In this document: positions 22,499 to 46,998 of the stretch, one piece after another | Layout: each line of letters starts with the position of its first letter | Numbering within the stretch: the stretch's first letter is position 1 | IMG/VR virus record: IMGVR_UViG_3300011113_000644 | Span: 7,813 to 71,812 of that record | Source of the DNA: a virus | Reading direction: 5' to 3' (one strand) | DNA: 64,000 nt | The notes under the pieces: generated by a model | What the model saw: only the letters and a program-made list of their open reading frames with translations | Told to the model about the DNA's origin: nothing | Databases searched by the model: none | Made by a program: the position numbers and the translations under genes

Positions 22499-25400
22499 TT
22501 AAGCATTAACTAAGGTATATTGAGTACCCTGTGATGTTATATCTTGGTTTAAAATATATCCTTGACTTCCATTGAATACTATTGAGGTCTCAGTGGATAA
22601 TGTGACTTGTCCATTATTAGTTAACTGATTATTTGTTTTGAATATTACAGGATATGTTTGTGTCAAATCAAAGATGAAAATACCAAAACCGTTACCAACA
22701 GAAGCATTTCCGACGTAGTTAATCCTTACCCACATTTCATCTCCAGCTTGACCGTTAGTGTTTAAATCCTGTCCAAGAATTGTAAAACTTGTTACACCAT
22801 AAAGAGTGGGGTTAGTAATTAAGGTAAGGTTTGCAATACCTGTAACGGCATTTACCTGATAAACTACTAATTGTGTTGCTATCCCTGAAATAGTAAAATA
22901 AAGATATTCGACTCCATTAATAACCCTCAAAATTGGGACATGATTAAGCAATGTTTTGAAAAGATTACTACCTGGTCTATTAACATACCCGCCATTCGCT
23001 GTTGTAGGCCTTTGAGCCGCGCTTGTATAATCCCAACTACACGCATTAAAATAACCATATCCACCGATAGTAGAAGGGATACAATATATTCTATCAGAAA
23101 TTAAACTTCTTAAAGTAATAGCCGAGCCAATCATAGTCCAAGAATATAGAGTATTTGTATTAACATTTCTGGCATAAAAAGTAGTATTTTGTATGTTACC
23201 GTAAAAAATGTATGTTGCCGTTGGGCAGTTGTAAATTACTGCACTTATTGGATTTGGATTATTGGACCCTGAAGACCATGTCCAATTAAGTCCTAACGAT
23301 AGGGAAGTTATATTTGATGGAAAAGAAGTCATATCTACAGTATAACCAAAACCTTGTATGTTATTAACTAATGTCATAACATTATTTTGAATGCTTATAC
23401 CTCCATTGTAGAATGACCCATAACTGGCGAATGTAAATGGTGATTTATTGGGTATTGGCAAATCATAAACTACCTGATTAGTTAATAAGCTTACAAACCT
23501 CAAGACATAAGATTGTGTACCTGTTGAATTATTACTTACTGAAACCATCGAAATTAAAAATCCTTGGTATTGTATCTGAGCAATTGGACTATTTGTTGCA
23601 ATAATTGAGTATGTTGACGGGTTCGCAACACCAATTCTTGATGTTTGACCTTCAAAATAACCATATGGAATTGTCGGTGAAGGTGTTATCGTCGGTGTTA
23701 TAGTTTTTGTTGGTGTAATTGAAGGTGTTTGAGTTATTGTAGGTGTTGCGGTTCTTGAAGGAACTGGAGGGAAACAAAATGAGTATGATTCTCCTTGAGT
23801 GATTACAAAGTTTCCAAATACTGAGGTAACCTCTACATCTAATCTTGCCATGTATTGTTCAGGAGCATTAACATTAACATTTGTAACTACAACTGAAATA
23901 AACCCATCCCTTCCTGCGGATGCTTCCATTATTGTGATAGTTGTACCCACTGGGATACGTTGGAATGAATCAGTGACTCCAAAACCAAGTACAATACTGC
24001 CTGATTCACCAACAGTTGGTGGTGGGAATGAACCGGCGTCAAACCCTGTACTATCTTTTGTAAAATTAAAGTCAGGTGATAAGTTTACACCACTACACAA
24101 ACCAGTAATTGTTGGAGTTGGTGTGGTTGTTAGGGTTGGAGTAACAGTTGGTGTTACGGTTGAAGTTGGTGTAATTGTTGGAGTTACAGTTGAAGTTGGA
24201 GTTACAGTTGAAGTCACGGTCGAAGTTGGAGAAACAGTTGGTGTTATTGTACTTGTTGGTGATTGAGTTTGTGTTGGTGTTACCGTATTTGTTGGTGATT
24301 GAGTTTGTGTCGGAGTAACTGTACTTGTCGGAGTAACTGTACTTGTTGGTGTAACTGTTGATGTAGGTGTCTGTGTGGCCGTTGGGGTGATTGTGGAGGT
24401 TGGTGTAACTGTTGAAGTTACAGTTGAAGTTGGAGAAACAGTTGGAGAAACAGTTGAAGTTGGAGAAACAGTTGGTGTTACTGTACTTGTTGATGTTTGA
24501 GTTTGTGTTGGACTAACAGTTGGAGTAACGGTCGAAGTTGGGGTTTGAGTTGGGGTTTGAGTTGGGGTTTGAGTTGGTGTGTCAGTCACTGTTGCGGTAG
24601 GAGTTTGACTGACAGTTATTAATGAACATATTGCAAAAAATTCTCCACCTATACTTCCTCCTTCAGGACTTATTGAACCCTCACCCTGAAATGAATATAT
24701 TGTTAACCCATCAAGATTTATGATTTGTTTATCCGTAACAAAAAATGATGCTGTTGTAACAAAGTCTGCGAATTGTAAAGTAATTGTAGAGTATCCTATA
24801 ACGACTGAATCATAAAATGATTGGTCACCTCCATTATTAATGTCAAACCTTTCATATGGAGGACCACCATTAAAAAACCCATAATTTACTTGTGTTGGTT
24901 CACCATATGTCAATCTAAAAGTACTACAAAGTGGTGTTAAAGTGGCGGTTGGTGTTACTGTCGATGTTACCGTGGCAGTTGGTGTAACTGTGGATGTTGG
25001 CGTTTCAGTTGATGTAACCGTACTTGTAGGGGTAACAGTTGAAGTTACAGTTGATGTTGGGGTTTCAGTTGGGGTGACTGTCATTGTTGGGGTTTCACTT
25101 GAATTTGGTGTTTGTGTTGTCGTAGGGGTGTTTGTCGGGCTTTCTGTAATACTTGGTGTTACTGTTGGAGTTGGAGTACTTGTCGGTGTCTCGGTAGAGG
25201 TTGGGGTAATCGTACTTGTTGGAGTTACAGTACTTGTTGGAGTTACAGTACTAGTAGGAGTAACTGTCGATGTTGGAGTTTCTGTCTGAGTAGCAGTTGG
25301 TGTGACTGTAGAGGTTGGAGTAGGTGTGGCAGTTGATGTAATCGTGGGGGTCGGAGTTAACGATTCGTCAGGAGTTTCAGGTGGCGTCTCAGTCACTGTT

Positions 25401-27433
25401 GGAGTCAATGTTGATGTCGGAGTTTCTGTCGGTGTTAATGTTGATGTCGGAGTTAAAGTAATTGATGGACTAACCGATTGAGTTGGAGTAACCGTTTGTG
25501 AATTTGTCGGAGAAACTGTAAGAGAGGGTGTTTGTGTCGGTGTTTCAGTTGGGGTTGGAGTAACTGTATTAGTTGGGGTAGATGAAGCCTCTGGACTTTC
25601 ATCAGGAGTTCGAGTAATAGTTGGGGTAATTGAAGTAGTCGGTGTGTTAGTCGGAGTTGGAGTGGTAGTTGGGGTTTCAGTTTGACTTGGAGTTTGACTC
25701 GGAGTCTGAGTTTGAGTGGGCGTTTGGGTTGGAGTTTCAGTAGGTGTGGGCGTTTGGGTTAATGAAGCGGTGACGGAGGCTTCTGGAGTTTCAGACACTT
25801 GAGGTGTATTCGTTATTGATGAAGTAATTGTAGGTGTGGTGGTCGTGGTAGGAGTTTGAGTACTTGTTGGGGTAATTGTTGGTGTTTCAGTTTGACTTGG
25901 AGTATTTGTAGGCGTTTCAGTTGGTGTGGGTGTTTGGGTATTAGTTGCAGTAGAAGAAGGGTTTGGAGTTTCTGATTGGGTAACTGTATGTGATGGCGTA
26001 TTAGTTATTGTTGGGGTATTAGTGGGTGATGGAGTATTTGTGGGAGTTTCAGTTTGAGTAGGTGTATTTGTGGGAGTTTCAGTTTGAGTAGGTGTATTAG
26101 TCGGAGTTTCAGTAGGTGTTGGAGTTTGTGTTAATGATGCCGTTATAGATGGTTCAGGTGTTTCGGACGCCTGAGGTGTATTTGTTATTGATGAAGTGAC
26201 AGTTGATGTAACACTTTGTGTAGGTGTTACGGTTGCCGTTGGTGTGGCAGTTGGTGTTTCAGTTTGAGTAGGTGTATTAGTCGGAGTTTCTGTTGGTGTC
26301 GGAGTCTGTGTGTTTGTTGCGGTTACAGAGGGGTCTGGAGTTTCTGATTGAGTAACTGTATGTGATGGTGTATTAGTTATTGTTGGCGTTATAGTTGGGG
26401 TTGGTGTGCTTGTGGGTGTTTCAGTTTGACTTGGAGTATTTGTAGGCGTTTCAGTTGGTGTTGGGGTATTTGTAGGTGTCTGTGTTGATGTAGGTGTCTG
26501 TGTGTTTGTTGCGGTGAAGGATGGCTCTGGTGTTTCAGAAGCTTCAGGTGTTTTAGTTACCGATAAACTAATTGTTGGAGTCTTAGTTATTGTTGGTGTA
26601 TTAGTTTGAGTCGGTGTTTGAGTCGGTGTCTCGGTTTGACTGGGTGTATTTGTTGGAGTTTCTGTTGGGGTCGGAGTCTGTGTATTTGTTGCAGTTACAG
26701 AAGGGTCCGGAGTTTCTGATGGGTTAGGGGTTAACGTTGACGTTTTTGTTATAGTTGGAGTATTTGTTTGAGTTGGTGTTTGAGTTGGTGTTTGGGAATT
26801 TGTTGGACTATGAGTGGGTGTATATGTTACGGACGGAGTAGGCGATTTTGTGGCGGTAGGGGTTCGAGTTGTAGTTTTTGTTGGAGTATTAGTTGGGGTT
26901 TCTGATGGAGTTAGTGATATTGTTGGGGTGTTTGTTGGACTTAAACTTATAGTTGGGGTGTTTGTTGGGGTAACAGTCGGGGTTGGGGTTTGACTTCTTG
27001 GAGGGACCGAAACCTCATCGACACAACAAGGCTGTTCTGTGGTCGAACCTGTCGTGGGTCCATACCCATCTAAAGAGAAAGATTCGGTAAAAGTAACCAA
27101 ATTTTTATCGTTCAAATCTAATTTTACATTACCTTGACTTGATGTTATTTCAAATACTAATTCATAAGACCCAATTACAGAAGTTTGATTTTTAGAAAAT
27201 TGATATTCAATTATATAGATTAATTCTGATGAGTTAAGGGGGTTGGTCTGAGAAACAATACTACAAGTTAGATTTGAAAGGTAAATCAAACCATTGTCGA
27301 CATTAATTAAACTCAGTTTTACAACATCAGTTGTTGACAAATTCTGTAATAAGTTGTAGCTACTGCGGCCGTCTTTAACTACCTCTATTTGTATTTTAGA
27401 TAATGTTGAATTTTGACTTATTATAAACTCCAT
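22499..27433 (-). CDS. Mucin-like Thr/Pro-rich virion fibre protein (1644 aa) with BppU-like N-terminal domain
   Basis: N-terminus paralogous to the upstream small gene; three T/P/S tracts separated by ~110-aa globular domains; beta-rich ~390-aa C-terminal domain. Confidence 0.75.
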   Translation of the reverse strand: MEFIISQNSTLSKIQIEVVKDGRSSYNLLQNLSTTDVVKLSLINVDNGLIYLSNLTCSIVSQTNPLNSSELIYIIEYQFSKNQTSVIGSYELVFEITSSQGNVKLDLNDKNLVTFTESFSLDGYGPTTGSTTEQPCCVDEVSVPPRSQTPTPTVTPTNTPTISLSPTNTPTISLTPSETPTNTPTKTTTRTPTATKSPTPSVTYTPTHSPTNSQTPTQTPTQTNTPTITKTSTLTPNPSETPDPSVTATNTQTPTPTETPTNTPSQTETPTQTPTQTNTPTITKTPTISLSVTKTPEASETPEPSFTATNTQTPTSTQTPTNTPTPTETPTNTPSQTETPTSTPTPTITPTITNTPSHTVTQSETPDPSVTATNTQTPTPTETPTNTPTQTETPTATPTATVTPTQSVTSTVTSSITNTPQASETPEPSITASLTQTPTPTETPTNTPTQTETPTNTPTQTETPTNTPSPTNTPTITNTPSHTVTQSETPNPSSTATNTQTPTPTETPTNTPSQTETPTITPTSTQTPTTTTTPTITSSITNTPQVSETPEASVTASLTQTPTPTETPTQTPTQTQTPSQTPSQTETPTTTPTPTNTPTTSITPTITRTPDESPEASSTPTNTVTPTPTETPTQTPSLTVSPTNSQTVTPTQSVSPSITLTPTSTLTPTETPTSTLTPTVTETPPETPDESLTPTPTITSTATPTPTSTVTPTATQTETPTSTVTPTSTVTPTSTVTPTSTITPTSTETPTSTPTPTVTPSITESPTNTPTTTQTPNSSETPTMTVTPTETPTSTVTSTVTPTSTVTSTETPTSTVTPTATVTSTVTPTATLTPLCSTFRLTYGEPTQVNYGFFNGGPPYERFDINNGGDQSFYDSVVIGYSTITLQFADFVTTASFFVTDKQIINLDGLTIYSFQGEGSISPEGGSIGGEFFAICSLITVSQTPTATVTDTPTQTPTQTPTQTPTSTVTPTVSPTQTQTSTSTVTPTVSPTSTVSPTVSPTSTVTSTVTPTSTITPTATQTPTSTVTPTSTVTPTSTVTPTQTQSPTNTVTPTQTQSPTSTITPTVSPTSTVTSTVTPTSTVTPTITPTSTVTPTVTPTLTTTPTPTITGLCSGVNLSPDFNFTKDSTGFDAGSFPPPTVGESGSIVLGFGVTDSFQRIPVGTTITIMEASAGRDGFISVVVTNVNVNAPEQYMARLDVEVTSVFGNFVITQGESYSFCFPPVPSRTATPTITQTPSITPTKTITPTITPSPTIPYGYFEGQTSRIGVANPSTYSIIATNSPIAQIQYQGFLISMVSVSNNSTGTQSYVLRFVSLLTNQVVYDLPIPNKSPFTFASYGSFYNGGISIQNNVMTLVNNIQGFGYTVDMTSFPSNITSLSLGLNWTWSSGSNNPNPISAVIYNCPTATYIFYGNIQNTTFYARNVNTNTLYSWTMIGSAITLRSLISDRIYCIPSTIGGYGYFNACSWDYTSAAQRPTTANGGYVNRPGSNLFKTLLNHVPILRVINGVEYLYFTISGIATQLVVYQVNAVTGIANLTLITNPTLYGVTSFTILGQDLNTNGQAGDEMWVRINYVGNASVGNGFGIFIFDLTQTYPVIFKTNNQLTNNGQVTLSTETSIVFNGSQGYILNQDITSQGTQYTLVNA
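24108..24612 (-). repeat. Coding low-complexity repeat (STVTPT/TQTP)
   Basis: Includes exact 12-nt tandem GTTGGGGTTTGA x3 at 24537-24572; boundaries approximate. Confidence 0.8.
24935..26995 (-). repeat. Coding Thr/Pro repeat tract with higher-order units
   Basis: TETP/TNTP/PTVT units; 30-nt tandem duplication near 26034-26098; blocks recurring at a 372-nt offset; boundaries approximate. Confidence 0.85.
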
Positions 27434-27786
27434 CAGTTAGTTACGTTAATATATAATTTTTCCCTATGTGGTAAAATATAATCACCATCGTCAGTAATTA
27501 AAGTAAATTCCGCTTCAAATTTTCCTATTTGACGAGTGTCAAATGGAGAAAACTTATAATATATGTAATACTCCAATTTAGAATTTGGCTCAACAAACAC
27601 TTTTTCCACAAATCCTCCCTTTTTATTAAGTATCACTTGCCTACCATCCAAAGTATCTTTCATAGAAAAATAAATCAATGAATTCTCAATAATTTCAGAA
27701 AAGTTATCTAACGAAGACTCACCGTCTTTAACAATCTGCATTTTCAAAAGTGGAAGCGTAGCGTTTTTTTTAATAAAAAATTCCAT
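27433..27786 (-). CDS. BppU-like small structural/adaptor protein
   Basis: From ATG 27786: MEFFIKKNATLPLLKMQIVKDG...IYYKF...DT...GKFEAEF; TATTTAT motif 5 nt upstream. Confidence 0.55.
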   Translation of the reverse strand: MEFFIKKNATLPLLKMQIVKDGESSLDNFSEIIENSLIYFSMKDTLDGRQVILNKKGGFVEKVFVEPNSKLEYYIYYKFSPFDTRQIGKFEAEFTLITDDGDYILPHREKLYINVTN

Positions 27787-27813
27787 ATTAAATAAATACG
27801 CCAAAAAGTATTA

Positions 27814-30210
27814 TCAACTTTCTTTTCTTAGACTTCTATCATAATGCTCATATCTATTGTGTTCAGTTGGTGTGAGTAAAAGTATTCCGGGGTTTAAGTT
27901 ACCTTTTTTGGTTTCTTGGAACATGTGACTCATCCAAGTTTGTTCATATGGATGTGTCCACTTAGTTTCTAAAAACATTTTTTTATTTCCATTCCTTGAA
28001 ACTATTTGAGGCCAATTACAATAAAAAATTTCTCCGTTTGCGTATGGTACTCCTTGGTAGGATTTAATACTGTTAAATTTTGTTTTTGGGGCGTTTGGGT
28101 CTAATCCGTGTTCAGGTAATAATTCTTTACCTACAAAATATTCCTCTCTTACCGCCTGTGGTACATTATACCACGACCACTGTACTGAGTTATCGCCAAA
28201 AAACTCTGAAAAATTTAATTTCAGAAAATCAAAATTTTCTATTTCAGCAATTTTAATACTTTTTTCATAAAGATTTTCTACATATCTATTAAATCCATTT
28301 CTACAAACCTCACCTTTATTTGGATAAAAAAACATATCATCCTCAAAGAAAAAATAAGCGTCCAATTTTGTCTTTTCAAAATGCTCAGCAACGAATTGTC
28401 TACCACCACAAATTCCCAAATTTTCTTTAGGCCATATTAATTCGAAATCATGTAAATTACATATTCTTTTATATTCTTCATCAGTAGACCTATCGGTAGA
28501 ATTATTTAATAAATATTTTTTTGGTTTGTTTAAAAAATCAACATCATAGTCAATAAAGGATTTAATGAGAGTATTAAATTGACTTGGACTATTAAATCCT
28601 ATAACATATAATCCCACATTTGACAAATTTTGAAAAGAAATCTTAGGGGTTATTTTTTTCTGCGTCTCAGTTCCGTTTTTCAAATCTTCAAAAAATTTAC
28701 CAATTAATCCGTTTTCATCTATTTCATAATAAGATATTAAATTCGGATACTTGTAAGTCATAATTGAAAATAGGGACTCCTCGGTTCCCATGTAACCTCT
28801 GTCCAAAGTCTCATTCAAAAGACCATAATAAATTGAATTTAATTCTTTTATGTTTTGTTTTTTCCCTCCAAAAAACCCCCCTCTTGCAACCAATTTAATA
28901 TCATTGTCATCTGCCCATTCGTTTATTTTTGGATATGAAAAACCGTGAATTTCTTTATCCGCATTATATGGAAAACAAATAAAAATAAAATCAGAAACTT
29001 TTTCACTTAATTTTGTTAAAACTTTGTCGTGAGTAAAATATCCTTGGTGAACGGTATTTGTTATTCCAGCGTCAATCCAAAATAAATGTTCAGAGTTAAA
29101 TTTATCTAAGATACAAGCGTCATTAAGTAAAAACATTTTAGACATAACCAAAGGGTTATACATTTCCAATTTGGCTTGCGTTGAGTCTTTTAACCAAGAT
29201 GATTGATTATACCAATCTTGATTTGACCTTATTTTTTGAATTTTATCAAAATATTGATTTTCCTTAAACCATGACAGTTCCCGATATATAAATTGTGTAT
29301 TTTCTTCATTTCTTATAGAAAAAACAATATTTTTCAATTCGTCATCACCAAAGATTATGAGGTTACAATCAATATGGAGTAATTGATTTAGTTTTTCAAT
29401 ATAATGGTCAAAACTTCTTGACCACCCCTCTGATAAATTGTTTCTACCAATATTCCAAAGTCCTGTCACAATTGTTGGTTTAACAGAATACTTTTCTGTA
29501 GTTTGGTAACTACTATGTGTTTTGATTTTTAAAGAAGTTGTTTCAGATAATTCCTCATAAAATTCCTGTGGTAATCCAACAATATCCTGTCCACTTATTT
29601 CATATTTATAATTTAGTTGATTGAATTTATTCAATATTAGGTCTTGTTCCTCAGTAGTTAAATTTATCCATTCTAACCTAACAACTTTTGGTCTAAATTC
29701 TTCAAAATCAATCTGTTTAAATATTATGTAGTCGTGTCCTTCAGCATCAATTTTAATTATGTCTATATTTTCAATTCTATGAGTCCTTATTAACTTATCA
29801 AAAGTGATACATTTAACTGTGACTTTTTTACCATATTTTTCCACAGTTGGTCTATCAAATTCACTCCCTAACCCGTTTTTGGGAGGGTATACTGCACTCA
29901 TACCGTAAAAACAACTGTGTACCAAACCATTGTCAATAACATCACGGTCAATAGTAACCATTTCAATTTCACCATTATAATCTGAAATCGCACTATTTTC
30001 AAAAACATTACCATTACTTGTAATATTTTTTTTTAGTTTTTCAAAAAGATATGGGATTGGCTCTACATATATACCTTTAAAATTGTATGTATTGGTGTAT
30101 CCAATTAACTCATCGAACATCACCCCATCCATCGCCCCTATATTCATTATATAAGTTTTGGGGTTTGTCCTACCTAAATAGTGAACCGCTTTATCAAAAA
30201 AATTATCCAT
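27814..30210 (-). CDS. Three-domain fusion: FkbM methyltransferase + HtrL/YibB-like glycosyltransferase + GT-A-like domain
   Basis: IGAMDG/VEP/IKIDAEGHD; TIVTGLWNIGR, WIDAG, GGFFGG, MGTEE; NLGICGGRQF and FFEDD. Confidence 0.75.
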   Translation of the reverse strand: MDNFFDKAVHYLGRTNPKTYIMNIGAMDGVMFDELIGYTNTYNFKGIYVEPIPYLFEKLKKNITSNGNVFENSAISDYNGEIEMVTIDRDVIDNGLVHSCFYGMSAVYPPKNGLGSEFDRPTVEKYGKKVTVKCITFDKLIRTHRIENIDIIKIDAEGHDYIIFKQIDFEEFRPKVVRLEWINLTTEEQDLILNKFNQLNYKYEISGQDIVGLPQEFYEELSETTSLKIKTHSSYQTTEKYSVKPTIVTGLWNIGRNNLSEGWSRSFDHYIEKLNQLLHIDCNLIIFGDDELKNIVFSIRNEENTQFIYRELSWFKENQYFDKIQKIRSNQDWYNQSSWLKDSTQAKLEMYNPLVMSKMFLLNDACILDKFNSEHLFWIDAGITNTVHQGYFTHDKVLTKLSEKVSDFIFICFPYNADKEIHGFSYPKINEWADDNDIKLVARGGFFGGKKQNIKELNSIYYGLLNETLDRGYMGTEESLFSIMTYKYPNLISYYEIDENGLIGKFFEDLKNGTETQKKITPKISFQNLSNVGLYVIGFNSPSQFNTLIKSFIDYDVDFLNKPKKYLLNNSTDRSTDEEYKRICNLHDFELIWPKENLGICGGRQFVAEHFEKTKLDAYFFFEDDMFFYPNKGEVCRNGFNRYVENLYEKSIKIAEIENFDFLKLNFSEFFGDNSVQWSWYNVPQAVREEYFVGKELLPEHGLDPNAPKTKFNSIKSYQGVPYANGEIFYCNWPQIVSRNGNKKMFLETKWTHPYEQTWMSHMFQETKKGNLNPGILLLTPTEHNRYEHYDRSLRKES

Positions 30211-30213
30211 AAT

Positions 30214-31164
30214 TTATTTAAAGATTTCAAAATCATCTAAAAACGATGATATTATTTTTATTTGGTTTTCAGGTCGGCAGTTCCTATCATACCATCCTTT
30301 AGCCTCATTAATTATATAATCATATTGACCAGAAGTAACTATTTCGTTAATTGATGACTCCAATTTTTGGATAATGTAGTTTGATTGGCTTGAATCATAT
30401 ATTTTGGATTTTATGTCGTTATCCAATAAATCAACGTAATGTTTGTTAACTTCTATAGGTTCATAAGTCATAACGTCCAAATACTCTCTAATCAATAAGA
30501 GACCGAGTCCAAAAGATTCTAAGTCTCTGTAGCAAATTTTAGCAACCCCATCTAAGTTCATTCCAAATTTATGTTTTGACATTTCTTCATAGTAACTTTC
30601 TTTTGTCATCCAATCTCCCTTGTCTTTTTTCTTAACATTAAATTTTTCACTAACTTTTAATACATCGACAAACTTTTCTCTTAATCCGTGACAAAGAGCA
30701 TTAAAGTAAACTTTATCAAAAATTTTTTCGTTTGTTTTATTTTTTTCAATTAAGTTGTAGTCACTCATGTTTTCTAACATGTATACTGATGGTTGTATTT
30801 TAGCGGAACCCTTATAATTATCAATTATTGATTGGTCTAACCTTGAGACACAAGAAAATTTGACCACATCAAAATTTTCGATTCCACTACCTTCAGATAG
30901 TATAGCTGGAGCATAATCATGCCAACTATGGATAAAAGTTTTTCCGTTTGATTCATTAAATAATAGAAAATTAAAAGGGCTAAAAATTGACGGAAGACCG
31001 TTATTGTAATCATTTTTTATATTGTATTTATTTGATAAATCATTCAAATGTTTTATTTCAATAGTAATCCCTGTATTTTCTTGTAAAGACTCAACAAAAT
31101 TTTTATAAAATTCTCCAGCATACCAATCAGTATACAGAAGGTTATAAGCGGCAATTAAATTCAT
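30214..31164 (-). CDS. Putative GT-B-type glycosyltransferase
   Basis: C-terminal YYEEMSKHKFGMNLDG...CYRDLESFGLG resembles a nucleotide-sugar-binding GT-B segment; glycan cluster context. Confidence 0.5.
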   Translation of the reverse strand: MNLIAAYNLLYTDWYAGEFYKNFVESLQENTGITIEIKHLNDLSNKYNIKNDYNNGLPSIFSPFNFLLFNESNGKTFIHSWHDYAPAILSEGSGIENFDVVKFSCVSRLDQSIIDNYKGSAKIQPSVYMLENMSDYNLIEKNKTNEKIFDKVYFNALCHGLREKFVDVLKVSEKFNVKKKDKGDWMTKESYYEEMSKHKFGMNLDGVAKICYRDLESFGLGLLLIREYLDVMTYEPIEVNKHYVDLLDNDIKSKIYDSSQSNYIIQKLESSINEIVTSGQYDYIINEAKGWYDRNCRPENQIKIISSFLDDFEIFK

Positions 31165-32063
31165 TTAATTATTTCTAAATTGTTATTTATATTTATTAGT
31201 TTTTGACTTGGGTTGTTAGATTTTGAATAGTATAAGAAAGTTGTAGTCCATGAAATTGAAGAAAAATAAAAATATATAGTTCCAAAATTTGATAAAATGA
31301 CCATTTCCGCTAAATTATCATAAAGACGCTCTAATAAAACTTCTCTACTAAAATTTTTATTATAAAAATAATAACAATGGTCATTTGGTAATTCATTCAA
31401 ATTTTTGTATTTGTAAATTACCACATTTTCTAATTCTGAAAGTTTATCGACCGCATATTGGTTGTGTGATGTTATATAGAATTTTTTATTTACGGTTTTT
31501 AATTTTTCATATAAATTATCACAATAAATTTTAAATTCTTCAGCCGGATTCAAAGCATAATCATTATATCTTATTTGAATCGCTTCAGATATGTAAGAAT
31601 TATTTTCTAAAAAATTTTTTACTTTATTATATATTTTAGGATTCAGTTTAGGTAATGTGATTGGTAAGTTTTCATTCCTTAATAAAGTTTCCATGTTAAA
31701 CACATATTTGGGATAAACTTCAGAGGGTATTTCGTCAAAAAAAACATCCCACCAATGAGCTCCGGGTTTATCAGGACCGTACTGTGTTGAGTGGTATATA
31801 TATCCTTCATAATTTTTATCACCAATTGAATGTTGCATATTAGTAATCTTATCAAAAACACTAAACGATTCCTCATCAAAAATTTCTTGAAGCTCAACAT
31901 AATCAATGTATTTGTTACTACCTTGATTTCCGTTTGATGCAAAAATTAATTCACATTCGTATCCCAAATTTTTGTAATGATTTGTAAAATTCAAAACCTC
32001 GACCGCTCCGCAATATAAATTACCTAGCCCATTATTGAAAGTAAGTTGTATTAATAATTTCAT
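31161..32063 (-). CDS. Fucosyltransferase-fold glycosyltransferase (GT11/NodZ-like)
   Basis: NGLGN at N-terminus, AIQIRYND (HxRxxD-like), FYITS, EMVILS. Confidence 0.55.
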   Translation of the reverse strand: MKLLIQLTFNNGLGNLYCGAVEVLNFTNHYKNLGYECELIFASNGNQGSNKYIDYVELQEIFDEESFSVFDKITNMQHSIGDKNYEGYIYHSTQYGPDKPGAHWWDVFFDEIPSEVYPKYVFNMETLLRNENLPITLPKLNPKIYNKVKNFLENNSYISEAIQIRYNDYALNPAEEFKIYCDNLYEKLKTVNKKFYITSHNQYAVDKLSELENVVIYKYKNLNELPNDHCYYFYNKNFSREVLLERLYDNLAEMVILSNFGTIYFYFSSISWTTTFLYYSKSNNPSQKLININNNLEIIK

Positions 32064-32065
32064 AT

Positions 32066-32713
32066 TTAATAAAATATATGGTTAAATGGTTTAAAATAAT
32101 TGTCTTCGGGGAAAACCATACCTACAAAAAAATTAAATTTATTTTCAGTTTCTATTATTGGAAAAGTTCCAAAATGTTTTGAACAATGCACAATATATGA
32201 ATCTGCAAATTTTGGCTCAATGACTTGTCTGACAAAATTTTGGTCGGACCCATATCCATCACCTCCTTCCCATTTTTTTATCAAATTTTTTATTTTTATT
32301 CTGTTATTTTTTTTAATTCCCCACATTCCTCCCATAATTTTATCATGATTTACCTCATCCCTGATAGAGTGTAATAATTTGTCAGATTCTAAAAAAATAT
32401 CGACACATTTTTTTTCTCTCCATGATAATCTAGAATCGGCATCCCTTGAAATCATAACCTCAACATCCGGTTCGTCTATTGGTAAAAACCTCCACATCAT
32501 AGAAGATTTGTTTGGTTTTTCTATTTTTCTGAATAACTCTACATTTTCATGTTTTTTCAATTCGTCAATAAAATATTTATCAACACTGTCACCATAATAT
32601 ACCCTACAAATCCATCCAGGATATATTATTTTAGCAAGTTCAACATTACACAACATACCGACAGTGTATTTTCTGTCCCATCCATACAGTGAAAAACTTA
32701 TAATTTTTTTCAT
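32066..32713 (-). CDS. Conserved putative glycosyltransferase (SFSLxG / WRF / RDxDSR family)
   Basis: IISFSLYG, MMWRF, SRDADSR, IMGGMWG, DQNF; paralog of 45824..46483. Confidence 0.55.
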   Translation of the reverse strand: MKKIISFSLYGWDRKYTVGMLCNVELAKIIYPGWICRVYYGDSVDKYFIDELKKHENVELFRKIEKPNKSSMMWRFLPIDEPDVEVMISRDADSRLSWREKKCVDIFLESDKLLHSIRDEVNHDKIMGGMWGIKKNNRIKIKNLIKKWEGGDGYGSDQNFVRQVIEPKFADSYIVHCSKHFGTFPIIETENKFNFFVGMVFPEDNYFKPFNHIFY

Positions 32714-33381
32714 TTTTTTATTTTACAACACCAAACTACTTTATTAAAATCTTCTGACATAAAATCAAATAAATTATTTTTTTCACAACTTTCTGAAATG
32801 TCAGAGTTTTGAATTTCATGCCAATACCAAATTTTATTATGGATATTTTCTTTATAATCCTTTTCATCAAAAGCATAATCATGAGCCATAATTATGTCGC
32901 CAGTTTTAAGATATCCACTCAAAGTTTTGAATTCTTCCTTTTTATTTCCCCCGTCACATAAAACGATTGTTCTTCCCTTTTGTTGTATCATGGTTTTTAC
33001 CGCCTCCTCATCTATCAGGGTATAATCGTCCTTAAAAATGTTCTCATGTCTGAAAATGATATTCAAATTTTTTTCTTTAATTTTACTTACTAAATGACCA
33101 GGTTCATAAATGTCGTAGGTTATTAAATCAGTAGATTGGGAACCGTTATAATCTAATAAATCCCTAATCATTAAGGTCAATCCTCCAGCGGCGGTACCAA
33201 TTTCAATTATTTGAGCCGGTCTCGTATCCTTGATTAATTTGTCAAAAGCAAATACTACTTTGTTATTTTGTTGTATTGATATTCCATCATACACAACCAT
33301 AGGAATGTTATGGTCTTTGAAAAATTCCTCATTGTCACAAGTACCATTGTTACACGTTAATTTTGATAAAATCTGTTCCAT
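32710..33381 (-). CDS. CmcI-like class I SAM-dependent O-methyltransferase
   Basis: IIEIGTAAGG, TYDI, LCDGG, GDIIMAHDY. Confidence 0.7.
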   Translation of the reverse strand: MEQILSKLTCNNGTCDNEEFFKDHNIPMVVYDGISIQQNNKVVFAFDKLIKDTRPAQIIEIGTAAGGLTLMIRDLLDYNGSQSTDLITYDIYEPGHLVSKIKEKNLNIIFRHENIFKDDYTLIDEEAVKTMIQQKGRTIVLCDGGNKKEEFKTLSGYLKTGDIIMAHDYAFDEKDYKENIHNKIWYWHEIQNSDISESCEKNNLFDFMSEDFNKVVWCCKIKK

Positions 33382-33393
33382 TTATTTATTTAT

Positions 33394-34638
33394 TTATAAT
33401 GTTCCTGTTAATCTTTCACCCCATCCTTTTGATGCTGAATGTGGCCAAACTACCCAATACTTTGGTTTTTTTGTTGTTTGGAATTCTCTCCACACTTTAC
33501 AATAACCGTCAGGGTCATTTTTCATTCTTTGTATTTCACTTGGGTCGGCATCTTTTCTGTAAATTGTTTCGTCGTTTTCGTCGTGGAACGCTACCGCCCA
33601 AAAATCATAATCATTTTCAGGTACTTGTGTATATCCTACGTCAATACAATGTTTGAATATTGATGCAAATGAATCCATCCATTCCTCTTCAGATGAATAA
33701 TTATATGTGTTCGGTGGGTATTTTTTATCTATTGTTTCTTGTTGAACAGCTCTTTTAGAAAAAAGTAAACCTGAATATCGTTCATAGTCCCTCAAAGTCC
33801 GTTCAGTTCCAAATCCATAAATCCCATGTTCCATTGGAGGTTCGTTGTCCATACCAAATAGGGCTCTATTTTTTTTATGACAAAATGAATTCCTTTCTCC
33901 CCATTTTTTGTCGTCATCCCATTGTTTAGTTCGACCTTTTCTTGTGTATTCATGCCAAATTAAAACTTTATGGGGGTGAAATAAATCATACCCATGAGTA
34001 TATGCTCTAGCGGCAATTGAAATTTCTTCTCCGTGAAAATAATAGTCAGGGTCGTGTTGTACCTCCTTAGCAAATTCACCCAAAGTGAAACAAAAATGAG
34101 CTGAGTAAAATCTAGAAGGTACTGGCTCTGTCAAATCTTTCCAACCAGGTATTGTTTCAGGAAGAAAGAAAACCGCACCTTCAGGAATAAATCTATCAAA
34201 TGTCATTCTCCATGGGTCTTGAACTCTACCCTGTGGGTCATTCTCAGGATTAAAAGATGAAACATAACCTGTAAGAAGGGGTTTTTTGTGTCCCTTTTTT
34301 TGGAGTTGTCTAACCATCTTTATCATTTCTTCATCCCAATTTTCAGCAAACCTCATGTGGGAATCAATTTGTAATGTATATTTTTCTTTTTTGTAAAGTT
34401 GTTGGATTTGATTCCTTGCCCAACAAGCTCCTTTTGATTCTAAATATGGAATATCTAAAACTCTAAATCTTTCATCACCATTATATTCTGACAAATCATC
34501 AAATTTGTCATCTGGGTGAAATTGTCTAGCTATTGCAAAAACTAAATTTTGAGGTTTTTTTGCATTTTCTATTGCCGATTTAATTGTTTTAATTAATTCA
34601 GGGTCTCGATATGAGGCAATTTGAATAAAAATTTTCAT
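33394..34638 (-). CDS. GT60-type (Gnt1/Gnt2-like) GlcNAc transferase
   Basis: IFIQIASYRDPEL, SKGACWAR, LQIDSHMRF...WD, SAHFCF, DP..YFHGEE...ARAYTHGYDLFHP: hallmark motifs of the Pfam GlcNAc / CAZy GT60 family. Confidence 0.85.
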   Translation of the reverse strand: MKIFIQIASYRDPELIKTIKSAIENAKKPQNLVFAIARQFHPDDKFDDLSEYNGDERFRVLDIPYLESKGACWARNQIQQLYKKEKYTLQIDSHMRFAENWDEEMIKMVRQLQKKGHKKPLLTGYVSSFNPENDPQGRVQDPWRMTFDRFIPEGAVFFLPETIPGWKDLTEPVPSRFYSAHFCFTLGEFAKEVQHDPDYYFHGEEISIAARAYTHGYDLFHPHKVLIWHEYTRKGRTKQWDDDKKWGERNSFCHKKNRALFGMDNEPPMEHGIYGFGTERTLRDYERYSGLLFSKRAVQQETIDKKYPPNTYNYSSEEEWMDSFASIFKHCIDVGYTQVPENDYDFWAVAFHDENDETIYRKDADPSEIQRMKNDPDGYCKVWREFQTTKKPKYWVVWPHSASKGWGERLTGTL

Positions 34639-34689
34639 ATTTTTTTATTCAAAAAGTATGGATAATGAATTAGAAATTAAATAGTAAAA

Positions 34690-37314
34690 TTAATTATTTA
34701 TACAAGATTCATTACTTGCAAATGGTCCTGATATCACAGTTATTTGACCAATCATTGTTGATACGTTAGATTCTACTACTCTTGCACATCCATTGAATGC
34801 GTTAGATGATGAAAGCCCATATACTTCGGGACTAACAAAATCTGCCGAGTATGTAGTCGTTACCTTAAATGTTGAAACGCTCTGAATACCACTTTGATAA
34901 ACAGTGGATGGGGTATTTGAAAACGTTGCTTCCAAATATAACCAATAATTATCCGCATCATCTGTAAATGCAAATGCGACGTAATCGTCACCATTAATAA
35001 CCTCAGAAGACATGTTACCAAAAAGATATTCAAAATAATTAAGTGGGTCATTATTTTTAACATACGTTCTAATGTAATTTCTCATTTGAGAAACAGTTGT
35101 TCCTGCATTTATTGTAATTGTTAATGATATTGGTGTTGCTGGAGTATTTCTATATCCCGAAATTGTTAGTGAACAATTTTGAGTGAAGGTGTCTCCCATA
35201 AAAAAGCTTCTATTAACTTCAAAATTATTGAACCTTGCAACATTTGAAGGTATTATGGGTTGGAATCTTGGATTTTTAATTGTATTCTGACTTGAAGTAG
35301 GTGTGGGAGTTCTCGTTGGGTCGGGTGTATCACTAGGGGTTGTACTTCTTGTGGGGGTTACTTGATTTGAGGATGTTACAGTACTTGTTGGTGTACTTGT
35401 TGGTGTTTTTGTTAAAGTTGGTGTTGGTGTGTTTGACGGCTCAAGAGTATTACTAGGAGTTACACTTCTTGTTGGAGTTGCCGGATTTGTCGATGTTACG
35501 GTATTACTAAGGCTAACAGTTGGGGTTTTAGTCATAGTTGGCGTCGTAGTGTTACTTGGGTTTGGGGTTTGTGTGGGTGTCCTTGTTGGGGTTTTGGTCG
35601 GAGTTTCACTTGAAGTGGTGGTAATTGTAGGAGTATTACTAGGTGTTTCTGTACTTGTTATTGTTGGGGTATTTGAAGGTTCAATTTCTTGATTTGTTGG
35701 GGTATTGCTTGGTGTTGGTGTTATTGTTGGGGTATTGGTAGGTGTAACAGTTGATGTTGGAGTTTCTGTTGATGTTGCACTTTGGGTTGGTGTTGGAGTA
35801 TTTGAAGGGTCAGGTGTTCCACTATTGTTAGGGGTTGTAGTAATTGTTGGTGTAATAGTAGATGTTGGTGTTTCTGTAATAGTGGATGTTGGTGTTTGTG
35901 TTGGTGTTGCGGTATTAGATAGAGTTATGGAAACCGATGGAGTGTTCGAAGGTGTTACGGTTACAGACGGTGTTGGAGTGTTTGAAGGGTTTGGGGTTTG
36001 GGTTTGACTTGAGCTCAAAGTTATTGTATTAGTATTTGTTGGGCTCACACTTATTGAATTTGTAATTGTTTGAGTCGGGCTTATTGTTGGTGTAGGTGTT
36101 AATGTTGGAGTATTTGTAGGTGTTTCAGTAGGGGTTGGTGTTTGAGTTTGTGTTGCGGTATTTGATTGTTCTGGAGTATTTGTTGTTGTTTTAGTCGGAG
36201 TGTGTGAAGAGGTAATTGATGGGGTGACAGTATTTGATACCGTAATGGTTTGAGTATTTGTAATTGAAGGTGTGTTTGATAGACTTGTAGTATTACTCGG
36301 TGTTTGAGTATTCGTTGTAGTCACAGTTGGTGTCTGTGTATTTGACAACGCTGGAGTTTCAGTTGTTGTTTGTGTTGGTGTATTTGTTGGAGTTTCTGTC
36401 GGGGTTACAGAATTTGACAGAGTGTTTGTGACTGTTGAGGTGTTTGTATTAGTTGGTGTAGATGTCGGATTAATAGAAGGTGTTTGTGTGTTTGTAGATG
36501 TTATAGTTGGTGTTGGGGTATTTGAAACCTCGGCAGTTTCACTCAAAGTTGGGGTATTTGTAATTGAACTAGTTACAGTTGGGGTATTTGTAATTGTATT
36601 AGTTACAGTTGGTGTAGTTGTATTTGTTGGGGTTGGGGTTATTGTAGATAAGTTTGATACTGATAAAGTTGGTGTTGGTGTATTAGTTGGTGTTGGTGTA
36701 TTTGAAGGGTCGTTGGTTTCACTTGGTGTTTGTGTAGTTGTAGGTGTTTTTGTAACTGTGGATGTAACTGTTGGGGTTACTGTTGGTGTTGTAGTAATAG
36801 TTGGCGTTGTAGTGATAGTTGGCGTTAAACTAACCGTTGGAGTTGCAGTTGATGTTTGTGTATTAGTTGGTGTTTGTGTATTAGTTGGAGTGTTTGATGG
36901 TTCAGGTGTTTCTGAAATTGATGGTGTTAAAGTGTTTGATGGTGAAATAGTTATGGTTTGAGTGGTAGTTGGTGTCTGTGTTTTGGTTGGAGTAATAGTT
37001 GGTGTGGGTGTAGTCGTAGATGTTGGAGTCAAAGAATTTGAAATTGTGATTGTTGGAGTTAAGCTTAGTGTTGGTGTGGGTGTATTAGTTGGGGTTGGGG
37101 TTGGTGATTCACAAGAAAAGCTAACAATAAAAGTTTGGTCAAATGCCGAAAAATAAAACGAAAATATACCACTATTACATTCATTATATGTATATGTGTA
37201 AGGAAAATTTAAACCGCTTCCTATCTGCGTATTTACTGAAGTTGAATTATTTAAAAAGAATAAATCAAAGTAATAAGATTGAAAATTTTCAGAATTAAAT
37301 ATTATATTAGGCAT
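34690..37314 (-). CDS. Second mucin-like Thr/Pro/Ser-rich protein (874 aa)
   Basis: ~70-aa N-domain, ~600-aa T/P/S tract, ~200-aa C-domain; start overlaps the LamG-like gene stop. Confidence 0.75.
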   Translation of the reverse strand: MPNIIFNSENFQSYYFDLFFLNNSTSVNTQIGSGLNFPYTYTYNECNSGIFSFYFSAFDQTFIVSFSCESPTPTPTNTPTPTLSLTPTITISNSLTPTSTTTPTPTITPTKTQTPTTTQTITISPSNTLTPSISETPEPSNTPTNTQTPTNTQTSTATPTVSLTPTITTTPTITTTPTVTPTVTSTVTKTPTTTQTPSETNDPSNTPTPTNTPTPTLSVSNLSTITPTPTNTTTPTVTNTITNTPTVTSSITNTPTLSETAEVSNTPTPTITSTNTQTPSINPTSTPTNTNTSTVTNTLSNSVTPTETPTNTPTQTTTETPALSNTQTPTVTTTNTQTPSNTTSLSNTPSITNTQTITVSNTVTPSITSSHTPTKTTTNTPEQSNTATQTQTPTPTETPTNTPTLTPTPTISPTQTITNSISVSPTNTNTITLSSSQTQTPNPSNTPTPSVTVTPSNTPSVSITLSNTATPTQTPTSTITETPTSTITPTITTTPNNSGTPDPSNTPTPTQSATSTETPTSTVTPTNTPTITPTPSNTPTNQEIEPSNTPTITSTETPSNTPTITTTSSETPTKTPTRTPTQTPNPSNTTTPTMTKTPTVSLSNTVTSTNPATPTRSVTPSNTLEPSNTPTPTLTKTPTSTPTSTVTSSNQVTPTRSTTPSDTPDPTRTPTPTSSQNTIKNPRFQPIIPSNVARFNNFEVNRSFFMGDTFTQNCSLTISGYRNTPATPISLTITINAGTTVSQMRNYIRTYVKNNDPLNYFEYLFGNMSSEVINGDDYVAFAFTDDADNYWLYLEATFSNTPSTVYQSGIQSVSTFKVTTTYSADFVSPEVYGLSSSNAFNGCARVVESNVSTMIGQITVISGPFASNESCINN
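35287..37108 (-). repeat. Coding Thr/Pro/Ser repeat tract
   Basis: TPT/TNT/TIT units punctuated by (D/E/N)PSNT; boundaries approximate. Confidence 0.8.
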
Positions 37315-46483: not shown

Positions 46484-46484
46484 T

Positions 46485-46982: not shown

Positions 46983-46998
46983 AAAAACGAAAAAAAAA

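Follow-up and report, generated by a model that had tools for sequence, protein, structure and literature searches.

The window, that is, the whole 64-kb stretch of DNA that was analysed, belongs to an IMG/VR record that measures 71.8 kb, comes from a myophage and was estimated by CheckV to be 24% complete; the genomes of its relatives span 295-321 kb. A tRNA scan of the window returned no tRNA genes. On the minus strand we found one co-oriented block, with all ORFs at the coordinates given in the original prediction, in which a PF11397/GT60 enzyme and a series of tailoring genes lie between two proteins with long Thr/Pro tracts, one of 874 aa (34690..37314) and one of 1644 aa (22499..27433). 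The upstream neighbour of the block is a gene for a conserved 636-aa protein (37307..39217, minus strand), possibly a virion protein, as indicated by a weak match of its residues 555-616 to phrog_8510, "virion structural protein" (E 4.9e-5). No Pfam family was assigned to it. Its homologue was present in 37 of 80 related viral loci, and the one in the complete relative genome G001 itself bears a Thr/Pro tract. Homology of the 636-aa protein to ORF350, the tract protein of phage XacN1, was considered and rejected (E 5.1).

The 414-aa enzyme (33394..34638, minus strand) lies downstream of the 874-aa gene, as had been claimed. It matched PF11397, which we take to be CAZy family GT60, with an E-value of 2.9e-67 and 228 bits against a gathering cut-off of 21, and covered profile positions 2-43 and 97-349 of 352, meaning that it is a full-length member; it also matched phrog_24687 (E 4e-174). 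The DSH triplet (D92-S93-H94) was invariant in alignments of 7 and of 16 sequences, down to 40% identity. In GT27 and GT60 enzymes, the DxH motif binds the metal. Inspection by eye indicated neither a signal peptide nor a membrane segment. Clustered at 90% identity, the proteins that match the enzyme form more than 7,500 clusters, PF11397 was common to all phage and bacterial homologues examined, and the best 120 matches of the homologue search were metagenomic proteins only, with 80-92% identity.

The AlphaFold2 (AF2) model of the enzyme (pLDDT 89.4) has a Rossmann-like core of alternating beta strands and alpha helices, of the GT-A type, followed by a beta-rich C-terminal extension of ~95 aa. 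In the PDB search with this model, ranks 1-35 were all taken by chains of GT27 ppGalNAc-transferases, on whose GT-A domains the model superposes, and the first other family, RmlT, appeared at rank 36. The nearest structures were the animal and Toxoplasma enzymes GalNAc-T1, T2, T4, T7, T12, PGANT9 and TgGalNAc-T3 (E 2.6e-10 to ~1e-8, TMq 0.43-0.50), with alignments of 258-311 columns that were restricted to the catalytic domain (rmsd 4.2-6.8). GT27 enzymes start dense O-glycan arrays on Ser/Thr/Pro-rich tracts; however, they share only 10-16% sequence identity with the phage enzyme, belong to a different CAZy family and differ from it by their lectin domain. In agreement with this, phmmer found no match of the enzyme among PDB chains, and neither GT27 nor ricin families were among its Pfam matches, so that membership of GT27 was not found at the level of sequence. 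The HMM check bore out the membership of PF11397, and the predicted fold is nearest to that of the animal mucin-type polypeptide GalNAc-transferases.

The two tract proteins were confirmed in coordinates and composition. The 874-aa protein contains 30.6% Thr, 13.0% Pro and 12.8% Ser, and the 1644-aa protein 27.5%, 12.2% and 11.0%, respectively. Among the 45 stop-to-stop ORFs of at least 200 aa in the window, only these two had a 100-aa stretch with at least 50% Thr plus Pro, and all the others contained at most 11.2% Thr. The tract of the 874-aa protein spans residues ~58-693; those of the 1644-aa protein span residues ~121-852, 927-1131 and 1209-1270, ~1000 aa in all where ~900 aa had been claimed. 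In both proteins, the pattern is a strictly alternating (Thr-X)n, as indicated by the frequency of a second Thr at position i+2 (71% of Thr in the 1644-aa protein and 69% in the 874-aa protein) and at position i+1 (only 4% and 11%, respectively). The repeat periods of the tracts in DNA are multiples of 6, with a higher-order repeat of 372 nt.

The 874-aa protein consists of an N-terminal domain of ~60 aa, ~630 aa of (Thr-X)n and a C-terminal domain of ~180 aa. Only the two closest relatives had homologues of these end domains, with 37-79% identity; their GT60 is 90-91% identical. The 1644-aa protein begins with a possibly BppU_N-like Ig domain and ends with a variable domain of 375 aa; in between, the three (Thr-X)n tracts are set apart by two small domains that contain Cys. 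Its internal and C-terminal domains had no homologue in the 80 related viral loci. Compared with GT60, the distal domains of the tract proteins diverge much more rapidly. The non-repeat domains of both proteins matched nothing in Pfam (E <= 1), PHROGs (E <= 0.1) or NCBIfam. A likeness of the C-terminal 375 aa to DUF5018-type proteins of Bacteroidota was discarded, the Atlas leads being below threshold (0.84-0.89).

The 1644-aa gene is preceded by a gene for a 123-aa Ig-like domain protein (27433..27804, minus strand), which shares 28-31% identity with the first 140 residues of the 1644-aa protein and is a paralogue of its N-terminus; the tandem pair was present in 62 of the 80 related viral loci. 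The original prediction had called this gene BppU-like. There was no match of the 123-aa protein or the paralogous N-domain in Pfam (E <= 1) or PHROGs (E <= 0.1), but the model of the N-domain (pLDDT 75) is an Ig-like sandwich with BppU look-alikes. Its PDB matches were weak and generic (E ~1e-3), and 115 BFVD entries matched it at E <= 1e-3; tail fibre, minor tail and tailspike proteins were among them, and "BppU domain protein" took ranks 19, 20 and 45; the similarity of the named matches was modest (TMq 0.36-0.52). On the basis of this model, the N-domain looks like the anchor domains of tail appendages.

Five further genes of the block had been described as methyl- or glycosyltransferases, and family searches supported this for two of them. 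The 223-aa protein (32710..33381, minus strand) resembles CmcI and rhamnosyl O-methyltransferases, as judged by a match to PF04989 (E 1.8e-5, 25 bits against a cut-off of 23.2) and a weak one to NCBIfam RhmsylMtase. The 798-aa protein (27814..30210, minus strand) is a fusion of an FkbM methyltransferase (PF05050, E 1e-17, residues 24-203), an HtrL_YibB domain (PF09612, E 7.1e-20, residues 246-494) and a C-terminal GT2-like part, the last third carrying NNSTD and FFFEDD motifs, found by eye. The 215-aa protein (32066..32713, minus strand), which had no match in Pfam, PHROGs or NCBIfam, may be a GT-A sugar transferase according to a language-model lead: its Atlas look-alikes at 0.99, possibly its own cluster, are viral clusters named hexosyltransferase or putative glycosyltransferase, the closest ones to which Pfam assigns a family (GT8 and Nucleotid_trans) score 0.91-0.92, and an RDADSR stretch can be read in its sequence. 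The remaining two, of 300 aa (31161..32063) and 316 aa (30214..31164), both on the minus strand, are orphans without a family in Pfam, PHROGs or NCBIfam. The 798-aa protein had a homologue in 73 of the 80 related viral loci and is thus the conserved partner of GT60; homologues of the 223-, 215-, 316- and 300-aa proteins were found in 18, 19, 10 and 3 loci, respectively.

On the plus strand, beyond the coordinates of the original prediction, the window contains a divergent sugar island of ~22 kb (41914..63612). It comprises GT4-like genes, Glyco_tranf_2_5, two GT2 genes, DUF3431 and GT17, and it also encodes a DegT aminotransferase, FkbM and C-methyltransferases and two SDRs of the 4,6-dehydratase/epimerase type, with PolB-exonuclease, dUTPase and PhoH genes interspersed. 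Examples of the Pfam matches are PF01041 (E 2.8e-75), PF16363 (E 1.1e-118), PF08484 (E 1.8e-45), PF04724 (E 5.7e-28) and PF13712 (E 2e-27).

The original prediction had called for a test of the co-occurrence of GT60 with T/P-rich ORFs in related contigs, and this co-occurrence was observed. A Thr/Pro-tract ORF lay within 10 kb of GT60 in 77 of the 80 related viral loci, almost always on the GT60 strand, and ended at most 600 bp upstream of GT60 in 43 of the 80 (30 of 53 among distinct GT60 sequences). Since the 80 loci represent one clade, with GT60 identity of 70-91%, this synteny is inherited and does not amount to 80 independent observations. In G001, nine of the 14 tract ORFs were clustered around GT60, in a region that makes up 14% of this complete genome (binomial 2e-5, though the tract ORFs are tandem paralogues), and the other five were 65-250 kb away from GT60. 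Relatives keeping their T/P proteins without GT60 had been named as evidence against the proposal; such proteins were found in unrelated phages and not among close relatives. PF11397 was absent from 36 of 40 viral records found by searching for a (Thr-X)9-type DNA pattern, including all seven that were at least 90% complete, and one record (G041, 140 kb, 94% complete) had 27 TPTPTxTP matches and neither PF11397 nor PF00535. Thr/Pro tracts do not need GT60.

Homologues of the enzyme, 46-50% identical, were also found in XacN1 (50%), Xoo-sp13 and the Stenotrophomonas phages CM1 and RAS14. As in the window, GT60 is followed there by a homologue of the HtrL/GT2-like partner; residues 246-798 of the 798-aa protein were matched beside GT60 in XacN1, Xoo-sp13 and RAS14 (38-40%), and in Bacteroidota loci. 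These phages nevertheless represent a different lineage, as the PolB of the window had no tblastn match to theirs, and they carry a carbamoyltransferase in place of the small enzymes of the window. In XacN1, a long TPTxT tract occurs in a 654-aa protein whose gene is 12 kb from GT60, and PT linkers occur in the neighbouring 3313-aa giant baseplate-adjacent protein. Near the GT60 genes that Xoo-sp13 and RAS14 retain, there are only short PT linkers. The XacN1 paper reported two or more glycoproteins in the virion, and its accessible text suggested the two glycosyltransferases of XacN1 as the cause and did not name family, acceptors or tracts. One of these two, ORF334, is the GT60 homologue.

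In bacteria, the close GT60 subfamily adjoins Thr/Pro tracts as well. In Jiulongibacter sediminis, two GT60 genes flank a 262-aa Thr/Pro-tract protein, beside a carbamoyltransferase and, two genes from GT60, a protein 52% identical to the 798-aa protein over its full length; all four TPTPTxTP pattern matches in the 4.5-Mb genome fell in the ORF of that 262-aa protein. A VgrG whose C-terminal tail is rich in Thr/Pro, with (TP)n, (PEPT)n or (STPEP)n repeats, was located 0.9-3.9 kb from GT60 in Ralstonia, Achromobacter (two genomes), Paraherbaspirillum and Cupriavidus. These tails held 54/60, 40/41 and 13/13 of the whole-genome pattern matches in three betaproteobacterial genomes, and the chance of such proximity of GT60 and a TP array was ~0.002-0.003 per genome. 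Four of the 11 informative bacterial GT60 loci had no Thr/Pro neighbour. More distant bacterial GT60s lack such neighbours: in a Burkholderiales sample, a Thr/Pro tract was present in 0 of 4 further PF11397 loci (at least 17 kb each), two of which had Thr-rich T/S/G or (TG)n tracts.

Taken together, an enzyme of a mucin-initiating family is flanked by two threonine- and proline-rich fibre-like proteins, which suggests that the phage probably sugar-coats its own appendages. We consider it fairly probable that the block encodes a cytoplasmic O-glycosylation of the Thr/Pro tracts in these proteins, and the best explanation for the block is a protein-glycosylation module of a freshwater jumbo myophage. 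This reading starts from what was observed of the enzyme (its family, fold and motif) and of the loci (the order and conservation of the genes, and the Thr/Pro tracts located near GT60 in phages as well as in bacteria); from these we infer the acceptor, the sugar, the order of the steps and the location in the virion. The soluble GT60 would bind UDP-HexNAc as the donor, with a metal held by the DxH motif, in the cytoplasm of the infected cell; UDP-GlcNAc would be the likely donor by family precedent. The first sugar would be transferred to Thr hydroxyls of the (Thr-X)n tracts in the 874-aa and 1644-aa proteins and in their paralogues in relatives. The conserved 798-aa partner, with its FkbM methyltransferase, HtrL_YibB and GT2-like parts, could then extend and methylate the glycan, which the variable set of further enzymes would diversify, and the 22-kb sugar island on the other strand may supply unusual nucleotide sugars. 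The expected product would be an extended, protease-resistant bottle-brush stalk, presumably held on the tail by the N-terminal Ig-like anchor domain and carrying the fast-evolving distal domain.

Alternatively, the tracts could be plain flexible linkers of hypervariable fibres, and GT60 and its neighbours could build or modify, during infection, a glycan that is not attached to protein (a polysaccharide of the host envelope, the LPS core or a sugar linked to lipid, for example). We regard this as unlikely, although HtrL_YibB is named after a protein of the LPS-core cluster, glycans are the usual targets of FkbM and CmcI-type methyltransferases, and the large nucleotide-sugar and glycosyltransferase island could serve polysaccharide synthesis. 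The existence of tract-rich phages without GT60 or GT2, and of GT60 loci without a tract neighbour, would also fit such a role. However, the nearest solved folds are those of polypeptide-acting enzymes and the characterised GT60 members act on proteins; in the block, neither a membrane segment nor a gene for a flippase or polymerase was seen; and nearly the sole long TP array of three bacterial genomes was found at most 4 kb from GT60, the sole array in a fourth being adjacent to it.

It is quite unlikely that GT60 glycosylates protein at sites other than the tract Thr, either hydroxyproline, as would a Skp1-type Gnt1 after a prolyl hydroxylase, or sites in other virion proteins such as capsid or sheath. 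The Skp1 hydroxyproline GlcNAc-transferase also falls within PF11397, the tracts contain 12-13% Pro, and the relative G002 encodes two PF13640 2OG-oxygenase domains. These, however, are ~210 kb from GT60 in G002, and PF13640 was found neither in the record of the window nor in the complete, GT60-bearing G001; a prolyl hydroxylase as a partner of GT60 was rejected as not conserved. The mycobacteriophage glycans described in PMC12619734, which are located at the C-termini of capsid and tail-tube subunits, would support a capsid-type target, whereas the recurring neighbour of GT60 across lineages is a Thr/Pro tract and not a capsid or sheath gene. Hypermodification of DNA, with glycosylated hydroxymethyl-pyrimidines that evade restriction as in T4 and its relatives, is highly improbable: DNA glycosylation is the function most commonly cited for phage glycosyltransferases (PMC12619734), the block adjoins a DNA polymerase, dUTPase and exonuclease genes lie in the sugar island and G001 has a thymidylate-synthase-family gene (PF00303), but G002 (98% complete) has GT60 without PF00303, which is also absent from the record of the window, no Tet_JBP (PF12851) match was returned in G000, G001 or G002 by a search whose control was silent everywhere, neither "GT60" nor "PF11397" occurs in the main text of a preprint on viral DNA glycosyltransferases, polypeptide transferases have the most similar fold, and GT60 is also present in bacterial T6SS and glycan clusters.

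The preferred reading, O-glycosylation of the phage's own Thr/Pro tracts, has precedents on two sides. GT60 is defined in PMC8724618 as the family of pp-alpha-GlcNAcTs; its members are UDP-GlcNAc:polypeptide alpha-GlcNAc-transferases acting on Thr of mucin-like proteins, require Mn2+ and are related to GT27 (PMC8724618, PMC3769586). The phage enzyme shares PF11397, the DxH-type motif and the absence of a ricin-type lectin domain with the protist enzymes TcOGNT-2 of T. cruzi and Gnt2 of Dictyostelium, and in both cases Thr-rich, Pro-containing mucin-like acceptors are encoded in the same genome, those of the phage being proposed ones. The protist enzymes are Golgi membrane proteins of the secretory pathway (PMC3769586), whereas the phage enzyme begins directly at the catalytic fold, and would therefore act in the bacterial cytoplasm, and bears the ~95-aa C-terminal extension. 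The chlorovirus PBCV-1 is a eukaryotic virus, the glycans of which are attached to the major capsid protein and not to Thr/Pro stalks. According to the XacN1 paper, it encodes an ER/Golgi-independent toolkit of many glycosyltransferases and sugar-modifying enzymes. In mycobacteriophages, phage-encoded glycosyltransferases decorate the phages' own virion proteins in the cytoplasm (Freeman et al. 2023, cited in PMC12619734), at the C-termini mentioned above in place of the Thr/Pro tracts proposed here. The latter "moraphage" paper also reports four core groups of glycosyltransferases in aquatic jumbo phages. The pathway proposed here is thus probably a variant of two known ones, protist mucin initiation by GT60 and virion glycosylation in mycobacteriophages. 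The original prediction knew of no such pathway in a tailed phage; the literature matches listed contained no phage GT60 pathway, but virion glycosylation by phage-encoded enzymes had already been described.

If this reading is correct, abundant freshwater jumbo phages would produce mucin-like stalks that are densely O-glycosylated by enzymes of their own, and chemistry thought typical of protists and animals would extend to phages and bacteria. Models of fibre mechanics, host adhesion, particle stability and antigenicity would change for such phages, and a soluble enzyme active in the bacterial cytoplasm would become available for making mucin-type glycoproteins in E. coli. GT60 was unexpectedly linked to VgrG (TP)n tails as well, which raises the possibility that T6SS spikes are also glycosylated. 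As a tentative generalisation, which we hold to be possible and no better than that, GT60 and its HtrL/GT2-like partner could form a widespread prokaryotic and viral system for cytoplasmic mucin-type O-glycosylation, with the (Thr-Pro/X)n tracts of external appendages borne by contractile injection machines as targets, namely jumbo-phage fibres and the C-terminal (TP)n tails of T6SS VgrG spikes. The eukaryotic mucin-initiating GT60/GT27 enzymes would in that case have bacterial or phage cousins that catalyse the same reaction on similar sequences, and the self-made glycocalyx of the phages would set the stiffness, protease resistance and adhesion of the fibres.

Literature searches returned nothing on VgrG glycosylation among the matches listed and, on GT60 in phages, nothing beyond a viral-metagenome preprint in which GT60 is listed among viral CAZy genes. 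The search for PF11397 returned a paper on a brown alga.

The 414-aa product of the minus-strand gene at 33394..34638 matched PF11397, which we take to be CAZy family GT60, over nearly the full profile (E 2.9e-67, 228 bits against a cut-off of 21), and also a PHROG of phage glycosyltransferases (E 4e-174). In GT60 alignments extending down to 40% identity, D92-S93-H94 and several His residues were invariant. The enzyme sequence gave no match among PDB chains. Its AlphaFold2 model (alignment of 16 sequences, mean pLDDT 89.4) was then compared with the PDB, and the best 35 ranks were all animal or Toxoplasma polypeptide GalNAc-transferases (E from 2.6e-10, TMq 0.43-0.50), the first different family appearing only at rank 36. 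Polypeptide GalNAc-transferases are the initiators of mucin-type O-glycosylation. The GT60 assignment made in the original prediction is supported by the profile match; by sequence, motif and predicted fold the enzyme belongs to PF11397/GT60, with a putative catalytic activity. As described in passages of two papers (PMC8724618, PMC3769586), GT60 comprises the UDP-GlcNAc:polypeptide alpha-GlcNAc-transferases of Dictyostelium and T. cruzi, relatives of GT27 without its ricin domain that require Mn2+ and use Thr of mucin-like proteins as acceptor.

All ORFs that had been named in the block at 22499-37314 were found there on the minus strand. Two of them are extreme in composition, with 30.6% Thr and 13.0% Pro in the 874-aa protein and 27.5% Thr and 12.2% Pro in the 1644-aa protein; among the 45 stop-to-stop ORFs of at least 200 aa in the window, Thr was at most 11.2% in every remaining one. 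The (Thr-X)n tracts, at residues ~58-693 of the former protein and ~121-852, 927-1131 and 1209-1270 of the latter, are strictly alternating: another Thr follows at +2 for 69-71% of Thr and at +1 for only 4-11%, and the intervening residue is most commonly Pro, then S, V, Q, N, E or I. At the DNA level the tracts repeat imperfectly, with periods in multiples of six nucleotides and a higher-order unit of 372 nt; the V/G-rich ORFs of the other strand are the shadow of this repetition.

Indirect evidence points to the tract proteins as fibres. Residues 1-140 of the 1644-aa protein are paralogous to the neighbouring 123-aa gene, and this tandem pair is conserved in 62 of 80 related viral loci (one clade, with 70-91% GT60 identity). 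The model of the shared N-domain is an Ig-like sandwich (pLDDT 75) with weak and generic matches in the PDB; against predicted viral structures it gave 115 hits at E <= 1e-3, and those that carry a name are tail fibre, minor tail, tailspike and 'BppU domain' proteins. Pfam and PHROG profile searches with the non-repeat parts of the tract proteins gave no match to known structural families. The distal domains appear to behave as host-range determinants would: those at the ends of the 874-aa protein were detected in no relatives but the two closest, with 37-79% identity where GT60 has 90-91%, and the last 375 aa of the 1644-aa protein had no counterpart in any of the 80 loci.

The window is a piece of a jumbo myophage genome of ~300 kb, as indicated by its tail sheath (9717-13016) and T4-type baseplate (7391-8143) genes, by the sizes of two related genomes, G001 (321,403 bases, direct terminal repeats, 100% complete) and G002 (294,914 bases, 98% complete), and by its collinearity with G001. 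Its G+C content is ~30%, and it corresponds to bases 7813-71812 of an IMG/VR source record of 71,812 bases with a CheckV completeness of 24%. The window also encodes a family-B DNA polymerase (19607-22405) and a SNF2 helicase, and a tRNA scan of the window found none. A phage-encoded Fe/Mn superoxide dismutase lies at 16666-17376 on the plus strand (Sod_Fe_C E 3.3e-39; 66% identity in G001).

Co-occurrence of GT60 with Thr/Pro-rich ORFs in related phage contigs, which the original prediction had proposed as a check, was seen at 77 of the 80 loci, all of one lineage, with a tract ORF no more than 10 kb from GT60. At 43 loci, representing 30 of 53 distinct GT60 sequences, such an ORF ends within 600 bp upstream of the enzyme gene. 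Six large tract ORFs occupy the interval between GT60 and the homologue of the upstream 636-aa gene in G001, where 9 of 14 tract ORFs fall within 14% of the genome. Because the loci represent one lineage and the tract ORFs are tandem paralogues, the association within the clade is conserved synteny and not independent evidence. Five more large tract ORFs of G001 (802-1907 aa) are located far from GT60, at 139683-152633 and 311613-321403, and one of them enters the terminal repeat.

Five further methyl- or glycosyltransferase genes had been proposed in the block, and family matches upheld two of them. The 223-aa protein is CmcI/rhamnosyl-O-methyltransferase-like, barely over the cut-off, and the 798-aa protein is an FkbM methyltransferase fused to an HtrL_YibB domain, its last third being GT2-like as far as motifs judged by eye suggest. 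The other three labels were not sustained: the sole lead for the 215-aa protein came from viral hexosyltransferase clusters in the Atlas, and the 300-aa and 316-aa proteins had no family match in Pfam, PHROGs or NCBIfam. Conservation among the 80 loci is uneven (798-aa, 73; 215-aa, 19; 223-aa, 18; 316-aa, 10; 300-aa, 3), so the GT60/798-aa pair forms the core of the block and the other enzymes are swappable. Residues 246-798 of the partner were matched beside GT60 in XacN1, Xoo-sp13 and RAS14 (38-40%) and also in Bacteroidota loci, and a Jiulongibacter protein is 52% identical to it over the full length. Pfam matches further revealed a 22-kb sugar island on the plus strand at 41914-63612, outside the region originally described, with GT4-like genes, Glyco_tranf_2_5, two GT2, GT17 and DUF3431, together with a DegT aminotransferase, an FkbM methyltransferase, C-methyltransferases (including a sugar C-methyltransferase) and two 4,6-dehydratase-type SDRs. 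Genes for dUTPase, PolB-exonuclease and PhoH are scattered through it.

Phage-encoded O-glycosylation of the Thr/Pro tracts in fibre-like proteins is the best explanation of these findings, and one that we hold to be rather probable. The core of what was first observed in the block stands, with three enzyme labels unsupported; the interpretation first offered is supported in part, by GT60 membership in sequence, motif and fold, by the tract neighbours and by the fibre-like matches of the N-domain. Initiation would be of the GT60 type, as in protist mucins, but would take place in the bacterial cytoplasm on phage proteins; the system also resembles mycobacteriophage virion glycosylation (PMC12619734, in a citing passage) and the virion glycosylation suggested for phage XacN1. 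The tailoring enzymes or the sugar island may instead serve a non-protein acceptor. A Skp1-like route through glycosylated hydroxyproline is a further rival, against which no conserved prolyl hydroxylase was seen, PF13640 not being found in the window record or G001 and lying ~210 kb from GT60 in G002. Glycosylation of phage DNA by GT60 is unlikely: of the two relatives, G001 alone gave a match to a thymidylate-synthase-family gene, no Tet_JBP match was obtained in the window record, G001 or G002 (the search control was silent too), GT60/PF11397 is absent from the main text of a preprint on viral DNA glycosyltransferases, and the same enzyme is found in bacterial T6SS and glycan clusters.

Tracts occur without GT60. 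A scan of viral contigs for runs of nine alternating Thr codons gave at least 80 loci, from which 50 were chosen (longer contigs, G001 itself omitted) and 40 searched for PF11397. It was present in 4 of these 40 tract-bearing records and in none of the seven that are at least 90% complete; tracts without PF11397 were thus found in 36. Relatives that keep Thr/Pro proteins without GT60 had been named in the original prediction as evidence against itself; such proteins were seen in unrelated phages and not among close relatives. The viral record G041 (140 kb, 94% complete) has 27 TPTPTxTP matches, at 51-57 kb, 78 kb, 127 kb and 136 kb, and no PF11397 or PF00535 match, and is either a tract-rich phage using other enzymes or one with bare tracts. 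Conversely, GT60 presence does not always imply tracts. Xoo-sp13 and RAS14 have short PT linkers only, and a tract ORF was found at 7 of 14 bacterial GT60 loci, that is, 7 of the 11 with usable flank. Strong PF11397 matches occurred in 8 of 301 sampled Burkholderiales genomes; none of the four new loci of at least 17 kb had a Thr/Pro tract, and two had Thr-rich T/S/G or (TG)n tracts. The association is thus restricted to the subfamily nearest the phage enzyme and does not extend to all PF11397. Our literature searches found no recognition of the phage enzyme as GT60, no pairing of GT60 with an HtrL/GT2-like partner, no recurrent siting beside (Thr-X)n tracts and no GT60-VgrG link.

Outside the clade, the jumbo phage XacN1 has a 50% identical GT60 homologue; 12 kb from it lies a 654-aa protein bearing a long TPTxT tract, and PT linkers occur in a 3313-aa protein adjoining the baseplate wedge. 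Virion glycosylation was proposed there too: according to parts of the XacN1 paper, at least two virion glycoproteins were reported, with the phage's two glycosyltransferases as their proposed source. In Jiulongibacter sediminis, a 262-aa tract protein lies between two GT60 genes, near a UDP-glucose dehydrogenase, an SDR, a carbamoyltransferase and the partner homologue, and all four TPTPTxTP matches in the 4.5-Mb genome fall within this ORF. The cluster (L107:4943-15145) combines features seen in the window phage with others of XacN1-type phages; its second GT60 is short, the hydrophobic N-terminus of the 262-aa protein is preceded by RR, and the partner homologue, an FkbM-HtrL protein, has 780 aa.

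In Ralstonia sp. 25C, GT60 is placed within a T6SS cluster (TssE, TssF, TssA, TagF, TssM; L114:9950-15131), 0.9 kb from a VgrG with a long C-terminal (TP)n tail. VgrG homologues of 50-61% identity, whose tails are built of (TP)n, (PEPT)n or (STPEP)n, are located 2.6-3.9 kb from GT60 in Paraherbaspirillum, Cupriavidus and two Achromobacter genomes (GT60-VgrG loci L109, L113, L114, L115 and L117). The tails account for 54 of 60, 40 of 41 and 13 of 13 whole-genome pattern matches in three genomes, and for none of six in Cupriavidus, where the tail repeat is of another kind; the chance of such GT60-tract proximity is ~0.002-0.003 per genome. The betaproteobacterial cases probably reflect one ancestral event. 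O-glycosylation of T6SS spikes is suggested as a possibility by the position of GT60 in or next to a T6SS cluster and close to a Thr/Pro-tailed VgrG, whose tail is nearly the sole TP array in three genomes. In Paraherbaspirillum soli (L109:8541-11329) the (TP)n-tailed VgrG is adjoined by a tandem pair of GT60 paralogues, with 42% and 44% identity to the phage enzyme. A Ginsengibacter MAG encodes a tandem pair of peptidase-like proteins, each of ~700-780 aa, that finish with repeats of the TTTKKPTPPP type and a hydrophobic tail (L106:478-4952, 7099-9120). They are encoded 3-7 kb upstream of a GT60 that has an additional N-terminal domain of ~260 aa fused to it.
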